From the NCBI GenBank assembly GCA_041749335.1, contig JBGTBM010000010.1:221110-285109 (forward strand): a stretch of 64,000 nucleotides of DNA. Reading direction: 5' to 3'. The DNA is from Patescibacteria group bacterium. Its GTDB lineage: Bacteria; Patescibacteriota; JABMPQ01. The notes under the pieces were generated by a model. The model saw only the letters and a list, made by a program, of their open reading frames with translations, was not told the origin of the DNA and searched no databases. Below, piece by piece: positions 21,338 to 39,632 of this stretch; within the stretch, counting starts at the first letter, position 1; each line of letters starts with the position of its first letter. The translations under genes were made by a program, and so were the position numbers.

Positions 21338-22270
21338 TTAATAGACTAAGATAATAAAATTTCTATCTTGTAGATTCCCTGCCCCGGTATCATGCGTATA
21401 AACCTGAACACTATTTGTATTAGAGGCATTGTTAAAGCTATAAGTGGCTAAGGTATCCGAGTCGGACATAGTAGTCCCATCTACAACGACAGAAATAAAT
21501 TTACCAGACACATTAAAACCAAAATTAACCTGATAACTTCCCGCAAGACCCGATCTCGTTATAGTTATATCGTTGGGACCAGCCGATCTTATGATCGATG
21601 GAGTTCCTTTACCATCTACCATTGCCATAGCTTTAACTGCACCATATCTCGCCCAGTGCTGTACAATATCGCCATCTAAAGATAATTTTCCTTCATTACT
21701 AACAGTTAAACCGCCTCCTCCGGTATTTTTACCAATCTCAAGCTCGTCTCCAATAATTTTTGCTCCCGGAACCCATAAAATATCTGCGAGACCGGCATTA
21801 ATATTCCCTTTATTATCAATAGTAAGTGTCACTCCCTTAGAAGGATTTTCCATAAGTAATTTTCCACTTACTTGGACATCTTTTGTCCACACTTCATTCC
21901 ATCTATGCAAAGAATCACCAAAATTATTGATATTAGTTAAGGTGGGAATTATATGATCTGAAATTTTCAGAGGATTATCTCCTCCTTTTTCTGACCGCCA
22001 AATTTCTCCATCGATTCTCACGTCATCTCCAAATGTAACCGGATCGTCGCTGTTATTTACAATTGTTCCATTAAAAAAGGTTACGCCGCCAATTCCCGGT
22101 TCGCCAATATAGGCAGAGTTTGCATAAATAGTGCCATTTACGTCTAAACTTTCATTATAGGTAATCGTTGATGCCGGCTGAAGGACATCAGCATCTGACG
22201 CTGCAGCTACTGCGGAAAACACAAAAACACCCAGCACAATTGCCAGTGTTCCCAGAAGTTTAATTTTCAT
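21338..22270 (-). CDS. secreted surface protein, paralog 1 of a three-member family (conserved N-terminal domain, divergent C-terminus)
   Basis: Signal peptide MKIKLLGTLAIVLGVFVFSAVAAA; N-terminal block LQPASTITYNE..GIGGVTFFNGTIVNN..DGEIWRSEKGGDNPLKISD..PT.TN shared with ORFs 22390..23367 and 36855..38012. Confidence 0.6.
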   Translation of the reverse strand: MKIKLLGTLAIVLGVFVFSAVAAASDADVLQPASTITYNESLDVNGTIYANSAYIGEPGIGGVTFFNGTIVNNSDDPVTFGDDVRIDGEIWRSEKGGDNPLKISDHIIPTLTNINNFGDSLHRWNEVWTKDVQVSGKLLMENPSKGVTLTIDNKGNINAGLADILWVPGAKIIGDELEIGKNTGGGGLTVSNEGKLSLDGDIVQHWARYGAVKAMAMVDGKGTPSIIRSAGPNDITITRSGLAGSYQVNFGFNVSGKFISVVVDGTTMSDSDTLATYSFNNASNTNSVQVYTHDTGAGNLQDRNFIILVY

Positions 22271-22309: not shown

Positions 22310-22339
22310 ATTTTACCCCCCCCCGACTACTTCTGTCAA
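22310..22339 (-). promoter_or_regulatory. promoter of paralog 1 with a G9 (C9 on + strand) homopolymer in the -35/-10 spacer
   Basis: Sense strand: TTGACA gaagtagtc GGGGGGGGG TAAAAT (18-nt spacer); C-run at 22316-22324. Confidence 0.5.
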
Positions 22340-22389: not shown

Positions 22390-23367
22390 CTAATAGACCG
22401 TTAACATAAATGACGAATCAATATTAGGAATTGTTGTTCCATTATCATCATATACAAATACATCAATTCCTTGAGCACCATTTATCGCTGTTGATATATC
22501 AGTCGGACTAACTCTTATTGGGGTTACTTGCCAATATCTATCATTTATATCAAATGCAAAATCAATAGTATAAACACCCGCTGGGTTTCCATCTTTTCTC
22601 TTACATGTTACTGAAGTATTATTAAATGTCCATGGTCTATTGCACAATCCATTAGATCCGACCATTACTAAGGCCTTAATAGCACCAGATGAATTTCTTG
22701 CTTGATATATATCTCCCTGAACGCCTAAATATGTTCCTACGTTTACATTTTTATCAACCGATATTCCTTCCTTAAACTCAACATTACTATTAAATATTGA
22801 ATTGTTTCCTACTCTTAACTGCCCATAACTATTTATTGTTACACCGCCTTGACTAAATCCTCCCGCAACATTAATGTTTTCAAAATCTGTCACCCCACTT
22901 ACATTTAAATCATTAAAGTTTGCCATCCCACTTATATTTATATCGTTAAAGTTCACATCTCCATTAAAATCAGCATTTTTAGCATACAACTTATTCCATC
23001 TATTTGCAGATGATCCAAAATCATTAGTATTTGTAATGGTCGGAATAACGTTATCAGAAATCTTTATTGGATCTCCACCCTTTACGCCTCTCCATATCTC
23101 TCCGTCCACTCTCATATCATCTGCAACAGTAAATGGATCTGTTGCCCCTTCATTTAGCACTGAACCATTAAAGAAAGTTACGCCACCCAATCCGGCCGTC
23201 CCTACTCTCAAAGAATCTGTATTTAAAGAGCCATTAATGTCTACATTTTCGTTGTAGATAATGTCTGATGCCGGTTGCAAAGTTGTAACATCTGACGCTG
23301 CAACGACTCCCGCGCAGAGGAATACTCCCAAAATAATAGTAAGCATTCCCGTTAGTTTTGTTTTCAT
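22390..23367 (-). CDS. secreted surface protein, paralog 2
   Basis: Signal peptide MKTKLTGMLTIILGVFLCAGVVAA; same N-terminal block as paralog 1; C-terminal half unrelated, rich in NFND/N-x-S/T motifs. Confidence 0.6.
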   Translation of the reverse strand: MKTKLTGMLTIILGVFLCAGVVAASDVTTLQPASDIIYNENVDINGSLNTDSLRVGTAGLGGVTFFNGSVLNEGATDPFTVADDMRVDGEIWRGVKGGDPIKISDNVIPTITNTNDFGSSANRWNKLYAKNADFNGDVNFNDINISGMANFNDLNVSGVTDFENINVAGGFSQGGVTINSYGQLRVGNNSIFNSNVEFKEGISVDKNVNVGTYLGVQGDIYQARNSSGAIKALVMVGSNGLCNRPWTFNNTSVTCKRKDGNPAGVYTIDFAFDINDRYWQVTPIRVSPTDISTAINGAQGIDVFVYDDNGTTIPNIDSSFMLTVY

Positions 23368-23387
23368 ATTTATTTGTTAGTTAATTT

Positions 23388-23424
23388 ATTATATTTTACC
23401 CCCCCCCCCAGCTACTTCTGTCAA
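23388..23424 (-). promoter_or_regulatory. promoter of paralog 2 with a G11 (C11 on + strand) homopolymer in the -35/-10 spacer
   Basis: Sense strand: TTGACA gaagtagct GGGGGGGGGGG TAAAAT (20-nt spacer); C-run at 23399-23409; flanks near-identical to the paralog 1 promoter. Confidence 0.5.
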
Positions 23425-23518
23425 AGCAAGGTGGGGATAAGTTTATTATTCAATTTACATTTAATGTCCTTACTGTAGAGGGACAGAACAATGTTCTGTC
23501 CCTACAAAAAAAATAATC

Positions 23519-23577
23519 CCTGAGCCCAGTCGAAGGGTTATTTTTGTCTAGCCTTCGACTTCGCTCAGGCAATAATT
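23519..23577 (-). terminator. long imperfect hairpin plus T-run (minus-strand terminator for the upstream GT operon)
   Basis: Minus strand reads cctgagcgaagtcgaagg...cccttcgactgggctcagg then gattatttttttt. Confidence 0.45.
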
Positions 23578-23780: not shown

Positions 23781-23788
23781 GGGGGGGG
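23781..23788 (+). repeat. orphan G8 homopolymer beside a TATATAAT box in a non-coding island
   Basis: ggacaggctcatctGGGGGGGGagacTATATAAT; homopolymers of 8 or more G/C are very rare at this base composition. Confidence 0.5.
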
Positions 23789-24018
23789 AGACTATATAAT
23801 TTAGTAAAACTGTTTAAGTTATAAGATTATTTTCAATACTTCTTTCTACTTCCTTCAATACTTCTTTCTTCTATTCCAAATTTGCATTTTTATACTAAAA
23901 AAGCGGGGCCACATAGATTGCGCGGCTCCCGCTCGAGGCTTAAATTCTTAAATTTTTGTAAGAATTCTCACCTAGTGAGATTACATAGTTTTTGGCTATG
24001 TAATCCGGTAGATGAAAA

Positions 24019-24207
24019 TTACACGCTTCCCCGCCCTATATTAATATACCGATTTACCAGTAAAAATATCATCAAAGCGAGGCTTGTAAACACCACTCCG
24101 TATTCCGAATAGACATTGGGCTCGTCGGACATAATGTCATGGATGGCTGCCCAGTTAATGCCAATAAAAGGCATTGAAACTAAAATTCTGATTAAATTTT
24201 TTTTCAT
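24019..24207 (-). CDS. possible small membrane protein downstream of the GT4 gene
   Basis: 62 aa ORF MKKNLIRILVSMPFIGINWAAIHDIMSDEPNVYSEYGVVFTSLALMIFLLVNRYINIGRG with two hydrophobic stretches; starts 6 nt after the GT stop. Weak support. Confidence 0.3.
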   Translation of the reverse strand: MKKNLIRILVSMPFIGINWAAIHDIMSDEPNVYSEYGVVFTSLALMIFLLVNRYINIGRGSV

Positions 24208-24212
24208 GTTGA

Positions 24213-25385
24213 TTAATTTACTTCCAGTGCGCTTTCTTTTACTTCCACATATTGTGTAGACAGCACTCGGGCATACAAATTTATTGTTTTTTTCGTGATA
24301 TCTTCCCAGTTGTAATTTTTAGATACATGTTTTTCCGCTTTGGCGCCAGTTTCAGCGACCAATTGAGGATTAGTAAGCAGTAGCTTTAACTTATATTTCA
24401 AATCTGCCACATTCTTGTTTTTAAACATATAGCCATTGCCGGCGAATGCTTCAATATTTTCCGGAATATTACTAACAAGAACTGTATTTCCATATTGCAT
24501 TGCCTCAAGGACAGTTATGGGAAGACCCTCTGATTCAGATGGATGAACATATAAATAAGCATTGTTAAATAGCTGGGATAAAGTTTTTCCAGACTGAAAG
24601 CCGGTAAAAACTATATCTTCCCTACCTTTGGCCAGTTTTTTTAAATAAGTTACATAATCATCGGTATAAGCAGAATCGCCCACTATCACCAGTTTAAGTT
24701 CTTTTAATTTTGATTCCCCTACTTCTTTTTTCAAATCAATAAAAGCCTTAATCAGATAATGAATGCCTTTATGGCGCACCAGCCGCGCGCAGGTCATAAT
24801 GTATGAGTTGGGCCTTAAATTAAATTTTCTGATATTGTCGAATCCTTCATGTTTTTCTATGGCTACTCCATTGGGGATATAATCAATATTGGCATGATAT
24901 TTCTTTAAACCTAAATCTCTAATAATTTTAGAAACGCCAATAGACTGATGGGGAAATTTACATGCGGCATATTCGCCAAACCTTAAGTACATTCTGGCAA
25001 AGCGGCCCCATTTTTGATGAAACTGATCGCGGCAATGAAAAGTAGAGACAACTTTGGCTTTTCTCTTTAATAACCTGGGAATAAAACTTAAAGTAGATGG
25101 TCCTACTCCCTGGTAGTGAATAATGTCAAAATTTCGCCTTAAAGCGTCCAAAGATGCAAAAAGCGTATGAGTAATCGCATCCAGATGCTTAGTCCTCAAA
25201 GAAGGCAAATAAATTAAATTTACTCCTTTATATTTTTTATCTTGATACTGAGTATAATGTTTACGTGAATAAACATAAACATCATGTCCGGCTTTAGCTA
25301 ATCTGATGCTAAGCTCTTCGGCATGCCTTTCTATTCCTCCCGATCTAGCCGGAATTCCTTTTTGTCCTATTAATGCTATCTTCAT
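24213..25385 (-). CDS. glycosyltransferase family 4 (GT-B fold)
   Basis: 390 aa; MKIALIGQKGIPARSGGIERH N-terminus; C-terminal GT4 motif PSESEGLPITVLEAMQYGNTVLVSNIPEN. Confidence 0.85.
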   Translation of the reverse strand: MKIALIGQKGIPARSGGIERHAEELSIRLAKAGHDVYVYSRKHYTQYQDKKYKGVNLIYLPSLRTKHLDAITHTLFASLDALRRNFDIIHYQGVGPSTLSFIPRLLKRKAKVVSTFHCRDQFHQKWGRFARMYLRFGEYAACKFPHQSIGVSKIIRDLGLKKYHANIDYIPNGVAIEKHEGFDNIRKFNLRPNSYIMTCARLVRHKGIHYLIKAFIDLKKEVGESKLKELKLVIVGDSAYTDDYVTYLKKLAKGREDIVFTGFQSGKTLSQLFNNAYLYVHPSESEGLPITVLEAMQYGNTVLVSNIPENIEAFAGNGYMFKNKNVADLKYKLKLLLTNPQLVAETGAKAEKHVSKNYNWEDITKKTINLYARVLSTQYVEVKESALEVN

Positions 25386-35957: not shown

Positions 35958-36848
35958 ATGAAATCAAAACTGCCAAAAATTGTCGTTATTTTTGCTCCGA
36001 CCGCTTCCGGCAAGTCTGATTTAGCGATTCGTATTGCTCAAGAAAAAAACGGCGAAATTGTCTCCGCCGATTCCCGCCAAATTTACCGCGGCATGGATAT
36101 AGGCACGGCCAAGGAACCGCTGGATAAAAATCAAGCGGGGTTTGAGCCGGATCGTGAAATTAAATATTTTTATTACGGTTTGGTTAGAAAAATACCTCAT
36201 TACATGATAGATATAGTTGATCCCAACGAAGCATATACGCTGGCCAATTACCAAAAAGACGCGGCTAAAGTTATTGATAATATTTTAGAAAGAAAGAGAT
36301 TACCGATTTTGGTTGGCGGTACCGGGCTTTATATTCAAGCCATTGCCCAAAATTTGAAAATACCCAAAGCCAAGCCGGATTTGAAATTACGCCGGAAGTT
36401 AAATGATAAAGACATTAAAGAGTTGGCTGAAATATATTATAAACTGGATCCGGATGGTTTTAAAGATATTGACTTAAATAATAAAAGACGCTTAATCAGA
36501 GCAATTGAGGTAACAAAGCTAACCAATATTCCTTATTCAAGACAAGTTAAAAAAAATAAGCCCAAATATAATATTGAGATGATTGATATTGGGATGGATC
36601 GCGCTAAATTATACGAAATCATTAATCAAAGAGTGGACGATATGGTTGACGGCGGCCTGATTAACGAAGTAAAAAATTTAATAAAAAAATACCCGCAAAA
36701 TTTACCAGCCTTCACAGGTATTGGATATAAAGAATTTATTGAGTATCTGAATAAAGCAATTGCTAAAGAAGAAGCGATAGAGTTAATCAAACGAAATTCC
36801 CGAAGATATGCTAAAAGACAAATGACGTGGATGAAGAGAGAGGAATAA
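35958..36848 (+). CDS. miaA: tRNA dimethylallyltransferase
   Basis: 296 aa; P-loop IVVIFAPTASGKSDLAI; VSADSRQIYRGMDIGTAK. Confidence 0.9.
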   Translation: MKSKLPKIVVIFAPTASGKSDLAIRIAQEKNGEIVSADSRQIYRGMDIGTAKEPLDKNQAGFEPDREIKYFYYGLVRKIPHYMIDIVDPNEAYTLANYQKDAAKVIDNILERKRLPILVGGTGLYIQAIAQNLKIPKAKPDLKLRRKLNDKDIKELAEIYYKLDPDGFKDIDLNNKRRLIRAIEVTKLTNIPYSRQVKKNKPKYNIEMIDIGMDRAKLYEIINQRVDDMVDGGLINEVKNLIKKYPQNLPAFTGIGYKEFIEYLNKAIAKEEAIELIKRNSRRYAKRQMTWMKREE

Positions 36849-36854
36849 TTTTTA

Positions 36855-38012
36855 TTAGTGCAAAACGACCCAGCTACTGCCATCGCATACCCTTAATTTA
36901 TCGGTTGAATCATCAAACCAAAGCATACCTTTGGTAAAATTATCAGCACATGTATAAGGTGCGCTATTATATGGTAATATTGTTAATGTTCCAACTACTG
37001 AAGAATTGTCCGACTGGACTTTTCCAATACTATAATTAGATCCGATTATAGTTTGAGCATCAATACTGGCATTTACATCAATGGTATTAACATCATTCAA
37101 ACTATGATTACCCATTTCAATATCACCCGACATTGTTCCACCTGCTAAAGGTAGGTACTGACTTACGGTAATATTATCCGGAATATCAGCATCCGCAAGT
37201 CCGGATACTCCGTTGACAGCCAGGTTGCCAGTCAAGACCCCCCCCGTTAATTGAAGATACCTGCCATCAGACTGTGCCTTAGTATAATAGTCGCCCGTAG
37301 AAAGTCCAGTTACCGTTGCTTCGCTAAAATCGACATCGCCAGTAAATTTCACATCATTGCCTTCTAATAAACCGCTAAATTTAGCATTATTTCCCTGCAA
37401 AGAACCGCTCAGCTCTACATCAACACCCTGTAACATTCCAGATAAATATAAATCGTTCCAGCGTTTATTTGCAGATCCTAAATTATTAATATCATCCTTG
37501 GTCGGATACATTGAATCGGAAACAAATAAGGGATCATCGCCATCAATTATTCCTTTTTTAGTGCCACCCCATATTTCCCTACCAACCATAAAATCTTCAC
37601 CATATAAATATCCCGCCAAATAAAGATCTTTCCATCTTTTATCATCAAACCCCAAATTATATGCATTAGTGTCTGTTGGCGTTAAAGAATCAGAAAATTT
37701 AAGCGGCTGGCCATCGGCTTGCCCCTTGCTGGGACCGCGCCAAATTTCACCATCAATCCGCAAATCATCGCCGATCGTAACCGGAATTTGCGGACCGACA
37801 TTAATAATCGTGCCATTGAAGTAAGTAACTCCACCCACTCCTTCATAGCCTACACGCAACGAGCTGACTTGCAAGGAGCCATTAACTGTCATATTCTCAT
37901 TATAAACAATGCTAGCTGGCTGGATCATTTCCGCGGTAGAAGCGTTGGTTGCGCTAGCAAACAAAGCTAAAGCTGTAATTCCTAAAGTTAAACCTAATAT
38001 TTTTGTTTTCAT
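36855..38012 (-). CDS. secreted surface protein, paralog 3; contains an in-frame G8 coding homopolymer
   Basis: Signal peptide MKTKILGLTLGITALALFASATNA; N-terminal block IQPASIVYNE..GVGGVTYFNGTIINV..DGEIWRGPSKG..PLKFSD shared with paralogs 1 and 2; currently an intact 385-aa frame. Confidence 0.6.
   Translation of the reverse strand: MKTKILGLTLGITALALFASATNASTAEMIQPASIVYNENMTVNGSLQVSSLRVGYEGVGGVTYFNGTIINVGPQIPVTIGDDLRIDGEIWRGPSKGQADGQPLKFSDSLTPTDTNAYNLGFDDKRWKDLYLAGYLYGEDFMVGREIWGGTKKGIIDGDDPLFVSDSMYPTKDDINNLGSANKRWNDLYLSGMLQGVDVELSGSLQGNNAKFSGLLEGNDVKFTGDVDFSEATVTGLSTGDYYTKAQSDGRYLQLTGGVLTGNLAVNGVSGLADADIPDNITVSQYLPLAGGTMSGDIEMGNHSLNDVNTIDVNASIDAQTIIGSNYSIGKVQSDNSSVVGTLTILPYNSAPYTCADNFTKGMLWFDDSTDKLRVCDGSSWVVLH
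37238..37245 (-). repeat. C8 (G8 on sense strand) homopolymer inside the paralog 3 coding sequence
   Basis: caagaCCCCCCCCgttaat; sense ACG GGG GGG GTC encodes TGGV in LQLTGGVLTGN. Confidence 0.6.
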
Positions 38013-38138
38013 GTTTATTTGTCAATTATTATTTTAATTTATTATACAGTATTTTGTGATTATAGTTAAATTCATTTTCATGCTTCTTATAACATAGCCG
38101 ATAAAATAAAACATGTAATAGTTTAAGAAAACAATCAG

Positions 38139-39632
38139 TTAAATCTGTTCAATCTTTGCTTTTAGCATCTCCCCAGCCGTTTTTGGATCAGCTTTCCCTT
38201 TGGTAGCCGCCATGACTTGGCCGATTAAAAACTGCAAGGCTTGCTTTTTCCCCGCCTGAAAATCTTTGACTGAATATGGATTGGCTATGATCACCTGCGC
38301 AATGATTTTATTTAGCTCTCCTTCATCGCTTACCTGCGCCAATCCCTGTTCATCTATTACTTGCGATGGGTCAGAGCCATGATCAAACATAATTTTTAAA
38401 ACCTTAACTGCATTTTGCGCGCTAATTTTTTTGTGTGCGATCATCGCCATCAGTTCGGCAAAATTCTCCGGAGTAATTTTACAATCAGCCAGACTAATAT
38501 TTTTTTCCTTCAAAAGCGCGAAAAGCCTGGTAATAATCCAGTTGGTCGCCAATTTGATTATTTCCTTGGCTTCGGTGGATATTTCTTTATTTTCTCCTTT
38601 TAGACTTTGAACCCATTCTTTGCTTTCCGAAATCACGGCTTCAAAATATTCCCCCACTTCCCTCTCCTGGATTAATATTTCAGCGTCATTTCCATTTATC
38701 TCAAATTGCTCCATAAATCTGTTTTTACGATCTTCCGGCAATTCCGGTAAATTTTTGAATATTTGAGCGATTTTTGCATCGCTAAATTCCAATGGAGGCA
38801 AATCCGGCTCCGGAAAATAACGGTAGTCCGCTTCACCCTCTTTGACGCGCTGCTCGATTGTTTCTCCTTTATTTTCATCCCATCCTCTAGTGGCTTGATA
38901 TAATTCGCCTCCCTCATCGAGCACGTCCGCTTGCCTGTTTTGTTCGTACGCCAAAGCTTTTTCCACCGCCTTGAAGGAATTCATGTTTTTTACTTCCGTC
39001 TTGGGTAATAACGTTTTCGCACCCTTTTCACGCAAGGAAATGTTGGCATCACAACGCAGCTGCCCTTTTTCCATATCCGCGTCTGACACTCCGATATATT
39101 TTAAAATCTTTCGCAAAGTCTGCAGGAATATTTTAGCCTCTTCGGGAGATCTAATGTCCGGTTTGGTAACAATTTCCATCAAAGGAGTACTGGCTCGATT
39201 ATAATCTACCAAACTGTAATTAGCTCCTTCCGGATGAATAAGCTTGCCCGCGTCTTCTTCCAAATGGATTCTTTCCAAACTTATTTTTCTTTTTTGTCCG
39301 CCTATTTCAATTTCTAAATACCCCGCACCGCAAAATGGCTGATCGTATTGGGAAATCTGATAGCCTTTGGGTAAATCGGGATAAAAATAATTTTTACGGT
39401 CAAACTTAGCCTGTTTATTTATCCGGCAATGCAGGGCTTGCCCCGCCATAATCGTCCATTCTACCGCCTGGCTATTGATTACCGGCAGCACCCCGGGATG
39501 GCCCATGCAAATCGGACAAATATTAATATTCGGCTCTTTAGGTTCCGCCTCATTGGGACAGGAACAAAACATCTTGCTCTTGGTTTTTAATTGGACATGG
39601 ATTTCAAGTCCAATGATGGTTTCATATTGCAT
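38139..39632 (-). CDS. gatB: Asp-tRNA(Asn)/Glu-tRNA(Gln) amidotransferase subunit B
   Basis: 497 aa; MQYETIIGLEIHVQLKTKSKMFCSCPN ... C-terminal GatB/YqeY domain. Confidence 0.95.
   Translation of the reverse strand: MQYETIIGLEIHVQLKTKSKMFCSCPNEAEPKEPNINICPICMGHPGVLPVINSQAVEWTIMAGQALHCRINKQAKFDRKNYFYPDLPKGYQISQYDQPFCGAGYLEIEIGGQKRKISLERIHLEEDAGKLIHPEGANYSLVDYNRASTPLMEIVTKPDIRSPEEAKIFLQTLRKILKYIGVSDADMEKGQLRCDANISLREKGAKTLLPKTEVKNMNSFKAVEKALAYEQNRQADVLDEGGELYQATRGWDENKGETIEQRVKEGEADYRYFPEPDLPPLEFSDAKIAQIFKNLPELPEDRKNRFMEQFEINGNDAEILIQEREVGEYFEAVISESKEWVQSLKGENKEISTEAKEIIKLATNWIITRLFALLKEKNISLADCKITPENFAELMAMIAHKKISAQNAVKVLKIMFDHGSDPSQVIDEQGLAQVSDEGELNKIIAQVIIANPYSVKDFQAGKKQALQFLIGQVMAATKGKADPKTAGEMLKAKIEQI

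Follow-up and report, generated by a model that had tools for sequence, protein, structure and literature searches.

The par3 gene lies in a 64,000-nucleotide (nt) stretch of DNA from a Patescibacteria group bacterium (the window: contig JBGTBM010000010.1, positions 221,110 to 285,109 of the forward strand) and encodes a predicted secreted fibre-like protein. Its coding sequence (CDS) contains a run of eight G residues (G8), which an earlier inspection of the letters alone, here called the original prediction, had proposed as a translational phase-variation switch. We find that the G8 is a real, lineage-specific homopolymer resulting from codon choice at a conserved Gly-Gly pair. Most probably it arose incidentally, and at the very most it is a young switch operating at low frequency; in this it is unlike the apparent contingency loci at the promoters of the two paralogues, par1 and par2. 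We put the probability that the G8 is an incidental or nascent slippage-prone tract at about 0.55.

The G8 tract and the products of slippage

As the original prediction had it, eight C residues at 37238-37245 on the + strand (CCCCCCCC) form a G8 in the sense of the open reading frame (ORF) 36855..38012(-), where ACG GGG GGG GTC encodes TGGV. The wider sense context is TTA ACG GGG GGG GTC TTG (L-T-G-G-V-L, with T256, G257, G258 and V259), and the run begins at nt 768 of 1158, that is, 66% along an intact ORF of 385 amino acids (aa). When changes in tract length were simulated, loss of one G (G7, a -1 slip) yielded a product of 259 aa and gain of one G (G9, a +1 slip) a product of 275 aa instead of the full 385 aa, in agreement with the proposed frameshift after about residue 255; tracts of G5 and G11 keep the reading frame. 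Both sequence hallmarks of a translational contingency gene based on a simple sequence repeat, namely a G/C mononucleotide repeat of at least 7-8 inside an ORF and truncation of the product when one unit is gained or lost, are present in par3.

The tract consumes two of the four GGG codons of par3, which has 47 Gly codons in total. In our alignment it codes for the conserved Gly-Gly of the first fibre repeat (motif YLxLxGGxxTG). The second repeat serves as an internal control: its Gly-Gly is encoded GGT GGA, so the motif requires the two glycines and not the homopolymer GGG GGG.

If the tract does slip, the chain of events would be a short one. The codon choice ACG GGG GGG GTC at the Gly-Gly of repeat 1 would create the G8, slipped-strand mispairing could then occur there as in any G8 run, and a +1 or -1 slip would leave a product of 275 or 259 aa without repeat 2 or the C-terminal domain conserved in orthologues. 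Such a truncated product would probably be non-functional if the protein adopts a trimeric fibre fold.

Orthologues lack the tract and no length variants were found

Four syntenic orthologues of par3 were obtained as DNA (P0002, P0003, P0004 and P0005); all adjoin miaA, and also gatB where the contig reaches that far. The original prediction had suggested looking for the same tract in orthologues, and had named non-homopolymeric codons at this position, together with an invariant tract length in deep reads, as the outcome that would speak against a switch. Non-homopolymeric codons are what we found in all four: ACC GGG GGA ATT, with a G5, in P0002 (locus L002, motif YLQLTGGILTGN), ACC GGC GGA ACA in P0004 (L003), AGC GGA GGA ACA in P0005 (L206), and a Gly-Ser pair encoded GGC TCG in P0003 (L205). 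The G8 is thus absent from 4/4 syntenic orthologues, and there is no G/C run of at least 6 anywhere in their CDS. No such run was seen either in P0017 or in P0006, a non-syntenic homologue with about six repeats, all of them with mixed Gly codons. Recurrence of a tract in orthologues or across a homology group is a feature by which phase-variable genes can be recognised, and it was not found for par3. The orthologues are 53-62% identical to par3, and synonymous sites are saturated.

We also searched for length variants of the tract. The exact par3 protein was present on two contigs, with a G8 in both and identical DNA in the one that was retrieved, the two assemblies possibly being derived from the same reads. 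Among 45 homologues drawn from about 5.8 billion protein clusters there was no truncated near-identical protein of 259 or 275 aa, the next best homologue being at most 62% identical. A metagenome scan with six exact octapeptide patterns from the par3 protein returned 63 pattern matches, none of them a relative.

Chance expectation of a coding G8

Only four G/C runs of at least 8, and no run of exactly 7, occur in the window, whose G+C content is 36.8%. Of its Gly codons, 11.9% are GGG, and GGG GGG encodes one of 90 Gly-Gly dipeptides. Shuffling of synonymous codons in 53 genes gave an expectation of 0.30 runs of at least 8 in all CDS of the window, with a probability of 0.26 for at least one such run. 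Coding runs are neither depleted nor enriched relative to this shuffle: five of at least 6 were observed against 5.65 expected, and one of at least 7 against 1.35. Dinucleotide-preserving shuffles of the whole window gave a mean of 1.8 G8 matches. For par1 and par2 the codon shuffle returned a probability of about 0.018 each, and from the per-gene values it follows that some member of the family would have a coding run by chance in approximately 4-5% of cases. The G8 is unusual for par3, at a nominal and post hoc level of 1-2%; across 57 kb of coding DNA such a tract is nothing out of the ordinary.

Elsewhere in par3, a W-G-G site at 37563-37571(-), encoded TGG GGT GGC, would itself be a G8 if both glycines used GGG; mixed codons are used there, and this site probably contributes a large share of the chance probability computed for the gene.

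Poly-G tracts in the promoters of par1 and par2

par1 and par2 are tandem genes whose products, like the par3 protein, have an N-terminal signal peptide together with a conserved domain about 110 residues long. That par3 is the third member of this family, as had been proposed, is borne out by 45% identity to par1 over 146 aa (E about 1e-30) and 38% identity to par2 over 235 aa (E about 1e-37). A tblastn search with the three paralogues revealed no extra copies or pseudogene fragments in the window. It was likewise right that all three carry a homopolymer of at least 8, namely promoter tracts of G9 in par1 and G11 in par2 and a G8 in the par3 CDS, and that par3 is without promoter poly-G: its promoter-like site is TTAACT-17-TATAAT, with no G/C run upstream of the gene, while in par1 and par2 the -35 and -10 elements flank the homopolymer. 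The par1 and par2 promoters are near-identical (TTGACAGAAGTAG..-Gn-TAAAATATAATAAATTA), with n = 9 versus 11.

A related arrangement occurs in a sister genome (ERZ4787356 NODE_1, which carries P0004). There, the promoter of the par2-like gene P0020 reads TTATCCCCACCT..CTTTGACAGAGAGCATC-G8-TAAAAT, with a spacer of 17 (TTGACAGAGAGCATC-G8-TAAAAT, L084 3935-3942), and 17 is the optimal promoter spacer. The homologous promoter tract has therefore been kept across species with differing lengths (G8, G9 and G11), the signature expected of a spacer switch, and it looks like a promoter-spacer phase switch. The par3 orthologue of the sister genome, P0004, has no tract in promoter or CDS, though the par2-like promoter poly-G is conserved in that genome.

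A hint of variation within a population came from the Logan assemblies, which use k = 31. The contig SRR28170473_10404, 100% identical to the window across the compared stretches, ends 19 nt beyond the par2 promoter G11, and its last 31-mer consists of T, G11 and 19 further nt (L204 4976-5006, corresponding to window 23380-23410). A break would arise at this point if reads with G12 or more exist, because the next k-mer would then have two predecessors. The break thus hints at length heterogeneity, biological or sequencing-derived, at the par2 promoter. The same assembly passes straight through the par3 G8, and since assemblers collapse minor bubbles, this is no proof of invariance. Exact-protein look-ups of par1, par2 and P0008 returned no record, and the comparison of promoter tracts between assemblies is limited to the end of this Logan contig. 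Scanning metagenomes with the promoter pattern TTGACAGA-N7-G7+-N0-8-TAAAAT gave 119 hits, 0 of them upstream of a family gene and most belonging to an unrelated human-gut element, described below. A better lead is provided by the promoter tracts of par1 and par2, which are stronger evidence of switching than the coding G8.

Weighing an incidental tract against a contingency locus

The chief competitor of an incidental tract is a true translational contingency locus under selection, at which fast slippage would turn the full-length fibre ON (G8) or OFF (G7 and G9). Combined with transcriptional switches at par1 and par2, it would allow up to eight combinatorial surface states, serving host attachment or phage evasion. 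We regard this as unlikely, although several points are in its favour. The formal prerequisites named in the original prediction stand, that is, an in-frame G8, a truncating slip, a fibre-like product with a signal peptide and paralogues with promoter tracts; the tract was not found in the four syntenic orthologues. The tract has the in-frame poly-G/C of at least 7 that phasome pipelines search for, and variability has been documented for tracts of at least 8 in C. jejuni. A stop follows immediately after either a +1 or a -1 slip, and the signal peptide and fibre-like repeats go together with the Wzy_C and glycosyltransferase envelope genes nearby.

A number of observations weigh against our preference for an incidental tract. 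The probability that par3 gains a run of at least 8 in the codon shuffle is 0.019 with pooled codon usage and 0.007 with its own usage, both values being nominal and post hoc, and the second is low because par3 has only four GGG codons. A G8 at this site needs not only two adjacent GGG codons but also an ACG before them and a Val, instead of the commoner Thr, after them. All other G/C runs of at least 8 in the window adjoin the par family, the two paralogues have TTGACA-Gn-TAAAAT promoters of different n, the sister homologue with n = 8 has the optimal 17-nt spacer, and poly-G at homologous family promoters varies over evolution (G8/G9/G11). The k=31 contig break at G11 suggests heterogeneity of poly-G length in the population. 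Absence from orthologues is not strong evidence either: phase-variable tracts are often strain- or species-specific, and with synonymous sites saturated at 53-62% identity the loss or gain of a tract is uninformative about recent selection. Lastly, the invariance of the G8 is weakened by the fact that the two assemblies may come from the same reads and that assemblers collapse minor variants.

Against a selected contingency locus stand the absence of the tract from 4/4 syntenic orthologues, the failure to find any length variant or truncated allele in the two assemblies and the protein collection, and a per-window chance expectation that is not small. The tract is also of minimal length; at exactly 8 it falls short of the peak of 9-10 seen for phase-variable tracts in Campylobacter, and this favours the incidental reading. 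In addition, the tract is located two-thirds into the gene, and the OFF states would still give a secreted fragment of 259-275 aa. A broader proposal, which we hold to be a little more doubtful still, is a small poly-G 'phasome' centred on one secreted fibre family, in which par1 and par2 would switch transcriptionally and par3 translationally, giving the population a combinatorial range of fibres with which to attach to hosts or evade phages.

Two further explanations leave the DNA switch aside altogether. Homopolymers can make RNA polymerase slip, and both shifted frames of par3 end soon after the tract, so that transcriptional slippage or ribosomal frameshifting could set a fixed ratio of full-length to truncated isoforms of defined length with no change in the DNA. 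Productive transcriptional slippage, however, occurs mainly at A/T runs of at least 9, the site has no slippery heptamer X XXY YYZ followed by a stimulatory structure, and with orthologues that lack the run no conserved two-isoform strategy is apparent; we consider this very improbable. Slightly less probable again is an assembly or sequencing artefact that conceals a true run length other than 8. Homopolymers are error-prone and the two assemblies may share reads, but the frame set by the G8 continues through the second repeat and the C-terminal domain conserved in orthologues, from which it follows that the consensus frame is correct up to a multiple of 3, and the tract is found in the interior, not at the end, of two contigs, one of 31 kb and one of about 300 kb. 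We separately considered, and rejected, a poly-G read-end artefact, given that the tract lies inside long contigs and that the conserved frame is kept.

Comparison with known phase-variable systems

The par3 tract resembles the poly-G/C contingency genes of Campylobacter jejuni (the PhasomeIt 'phasome') and ORF poly-G loci of Neisseria such as hmbR and the lgt genes in having a G/C run of at least 7-8 in an ORF whose product is truncated by a +1 or -1 slip, in its predicted envelope or surface product and in having paralogues that also carry tracts. It differs from them in that the tract occurs in no orthologue, that a length of 8 is at the low end, and that the host is an uncultured member of the Patescibacteria. 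Promoter-spacer repeat switches are represented by the poly-C/G tracts of opc and porA in Neisseria meningitidis and the TA repeats of hifA/B in Haemophilus influenzae. It is par1 and par2, not par3, that are like these: a homopolymer sets the spacer, to 17 in the sister genome, 18 in par1 and 20 in par2. The promoter-like site of par3 is plain in comparison, and any switching of this gene would be translational.

The 7C tract of Mycobacterium tuberculosis glpK and other homopolymer tracts are reported to give reversible frameshifts in ordinary genes. The likeness to par3 lies in a short run of 7-9 nt which, without being universally conserved, can frameshift reversibly at a useful rate; the difference is that variants were there observed across thousands of isolates, compared with effectively one population sample here. 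A last comparison is with phage tail-fibre and tailspike proteins that have repeats of the YLPLxGGTMTG type, since long phage-like homologues of par3 also contain the motif in which the tract lies. Unlike these phage proteins, par3 has a Sec signal peptide, a housekeeping context of gatB and miaA with no phage genes near, and no match at curated thresholds.

In the literature that we searched, we came across no paper describing phase variation by repeats in Patescibacteria. If the phasome proposal were true, it would as far as we know be the first example of repeat-mediated phase variation from the Candidate Phyla Radiation (CPR), and a case of one family using both transcriptional and translational modes of switching; if confirmed, it would be a known kind of switch in a new phylum. 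A life attached to host cells is assumed for CPR/Patescibacteria, and a switching G8 would make the fibre family, with its 924 clusters, a candidate determinant of interactions with hosts or phages. If the G8 does not switch, it calls for caution, as chance can readily account for one G8 of minimal length at a conserved Gly-Gly, and the promoter tracts are the stronger signal.

The par3 protein

The coordinates of the features of par3 and of the three promoters are collected in Table 1.

Table 1. Features of par3 and of the par family promoters in the window.
Feature	Position	Strand	Remarks
par3 CDS, 385 aa, predicted secreted fibre-like protein	36855..38012	-	between gatB (38139..39632) and miaA (35958..36848)
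Predicted Sec-type signal peptide, residues 1-24 (MKTKILGLTLGITALALFASATNA)	37941..38012	-	read from the translation; putative cleavage site
Family-defining N-terminal domain, residues 28-140	37593..37931	-	QPAS, GGVTYFNGT, PVTxGDDxRxDGxIWRG, LGxxxxRWxxLY; common to par1 and par2
Two 34-residue fibre repeats, residues 250-283 and 284-317	37062..37265	-	each opens with YLxLxGGxxxG
G8 homopolymer, candidate slippage site	37238..37245	-	codons ACG GGG GGG GTC, T256-G257-G258-V259
TGA stop of the -1 (G7) frame, 259 aa	37232..37234	-	
TGA stop of the +1 (G9) frame, 275 aa	37186..37188	-	
Gly-Gly of the second repeat (YLPLAGGTMSGD)	37137..37142	-	encoded GGT GGA
Residues 259-385, lost on a +1 or -1 slip	36858..37238	-	rest of repeat 1, repeat 2, C-terminal Cys-bracketed beta domain
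C-terminal Cys-bracketed beta domain, residues ~345-385	36858-36980	-	conserved in P0002, P0003, P0004, P0015 and P0020
par3 promoter-like site TTAACT-17-TATAAT	38041..38069	-	consensus match only; no homopolymer
G9 in the par1 promoter spacer, TTGACA-18-TAAAAT	22316..22324	-	upstream of the par1 CDS 21338..22270(-); promoter scan 11/12
G11 in the par2 promoter spacer, TTGACA-20-TAAAAT	23399..23409	-	upstream of the par2 CDS 22390..23367(-)

The window is chromosomal DNA and carries the genes for DnaE, GyrB, PheT, RNR, ThrRS, SbcCD, GatB and MiaA; the gatB/par3/miaA synteny is also found in L001, L002, L003 and L205. With its signal peptide and domain of about 110 residues, par3 falls within an unnamed family of secreted Patescibacteria proteins (GGVT[YF]FNGT ... 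DGxIWRG), and it has all the invariant family columns (G55, G60, G61, V62, G67, N71, P77, D82, R85 and D87). The N-terminal domain is followed by an internally duplicated IWRG...LGxxxxRWxDLYLxG module and then by short beta-helix-like repeats. The translation contains no lipobox Cys and no C-terminal LPXTG motif. Envelope genes lie nearby (Wzy_C and glycosyltransferases), and LytR and sortase are found near homologues. Taken together, these neighbouring envelope genes, the architecture of the repeats and the signal peptide suggest that the product is a secreted fibre-like protein located at the cell surface.

AlphaFold2 (AF2) monomer models of par3 were poor, with a mean predicted local distance difference test score (pLDDT) of 41.8 from 10 sequences and 60.6 from 39 sequences, and consisted mostly of extended coil, as is to be expected if the protein is a probable trimeric fibre. 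The model has an N-terminal helix at residues 2-22, and the C-terminal 40 residues are the only part modelled with confidence (pLDDT 74-88). A Foldseek search against the Protein Data Bank (PDB) gave nothing at E <= 0.001, the best E being 4 or more, sequence and profile searches of the PDB found no meaningful relative, and no Pfam, PHROG or PDB family was matched above threshold. Below threshold there were weak matches to tail-fibre and tailspike families, namely PF12219 End_tail_spike at 16.9 bits against a cut-off of 25, and phrog_7121 (tail fiber) and phrog_1171 (tail spike) at E 0.0016 and 0.0068, with no stretch passing alone.

The wider family

An exhaustive HMMER scan at E <= 1e-3 returned 924 representative clusters, and most of the matches fall within residues 1-140. 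Wherever the source is named, the homologues of par3 come from metagenome-assembled genomes of Patescibacteria/Parcubacteria. Some family records bear the titles Gammaproteobacteria, Ignavibacteria or Pirellulales, probably through mis-binning or mislabelling. The motif YL(P/Q)LxGGTMTG recurs in long phage-like homologues such as P0032, P0035 and P0037-P0042, with AGYLPLKGGTMSGVLDMG.

With the family alignment we scanned a genome collection and obtained 79 loci from other Patescibacteria (L005-L083), the genome of the window not being among them. The family defined by the N-terminal domain is multi-copy, with at least seven loci in MFD02416.bin.1.123 and in OS_PC_MetaG.mb.121 and at least six in MEGAHIT-group-2.138, and the C-terminal regions are highly variable among these loci. 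The combination of multiple copies and variable C-termini suggests a diversifying surface or adhesin family. In approximately 390 kb from the 79 distant loci there were eight G/C runs of at least 7, their location inside family CDS being unchecked (four are exactly G7, and L049 and L050 are identical), and poly-G in these loci had no association with promoters or CDS.

Other observations

Upstream of par2, an additional G8 on the + strand (23781-23788) lies in a non-coding stretch of about 800 bp between a glycosyltransferase operon and par2. Its context, GGACAGGCTCATCT-G8-AGACTATATAAT, is loosely like the layout of the par1 and par2 promoters but on the opposite strand, and there is no ORF downstream. 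An Rfam search of the window identified three tRNAs and nothing else, with no credible match near this G8.

At 23480-23570(-) and 23832-23868(-), the region upstream of par2 also contains a long hairpin, GCCTGAGCGAAGTCGAAGG...CCTTCGACTGGGCTCAGG, followed by T8, as well as a perfect hairpin, GGGACAGAACATTGTTCTGTCCC, and two copies of the 15-nt direct repeat GAAAGAAGTATTGAA. These elements may belong to a small transcript that is not annotated, or to its terminators; the Rfam matches here were all below threshold and attributable to chance. An unlisted ORF of 63 aa (MKKNLIRILVSMPFIGINW...) at 24023-24214(-) overlaps by 2 nt (24213-24214) the stop of the glycosyltransferase gene 24213..25385(-). 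Its product resembles a small membrane protein, and a terminator-like hairpin follows the ORF at about 23908-23926.

The human-gut element that dominated our promoter-pattern scan (L085-L203, for example L093 72-99 and L181) has the form TTGACAGAATGC[G/C]-G(about 9-17)-TAAAATTTGTG, and the length of its G-run differs among approximately 80 contigs. In at least two loci it lies upstream of a lipoprotein-like ORF (MKLFKKVLA..LTGC). It is probably a phase-variable promoter of a gut bacterium and is unrelated to the par family.

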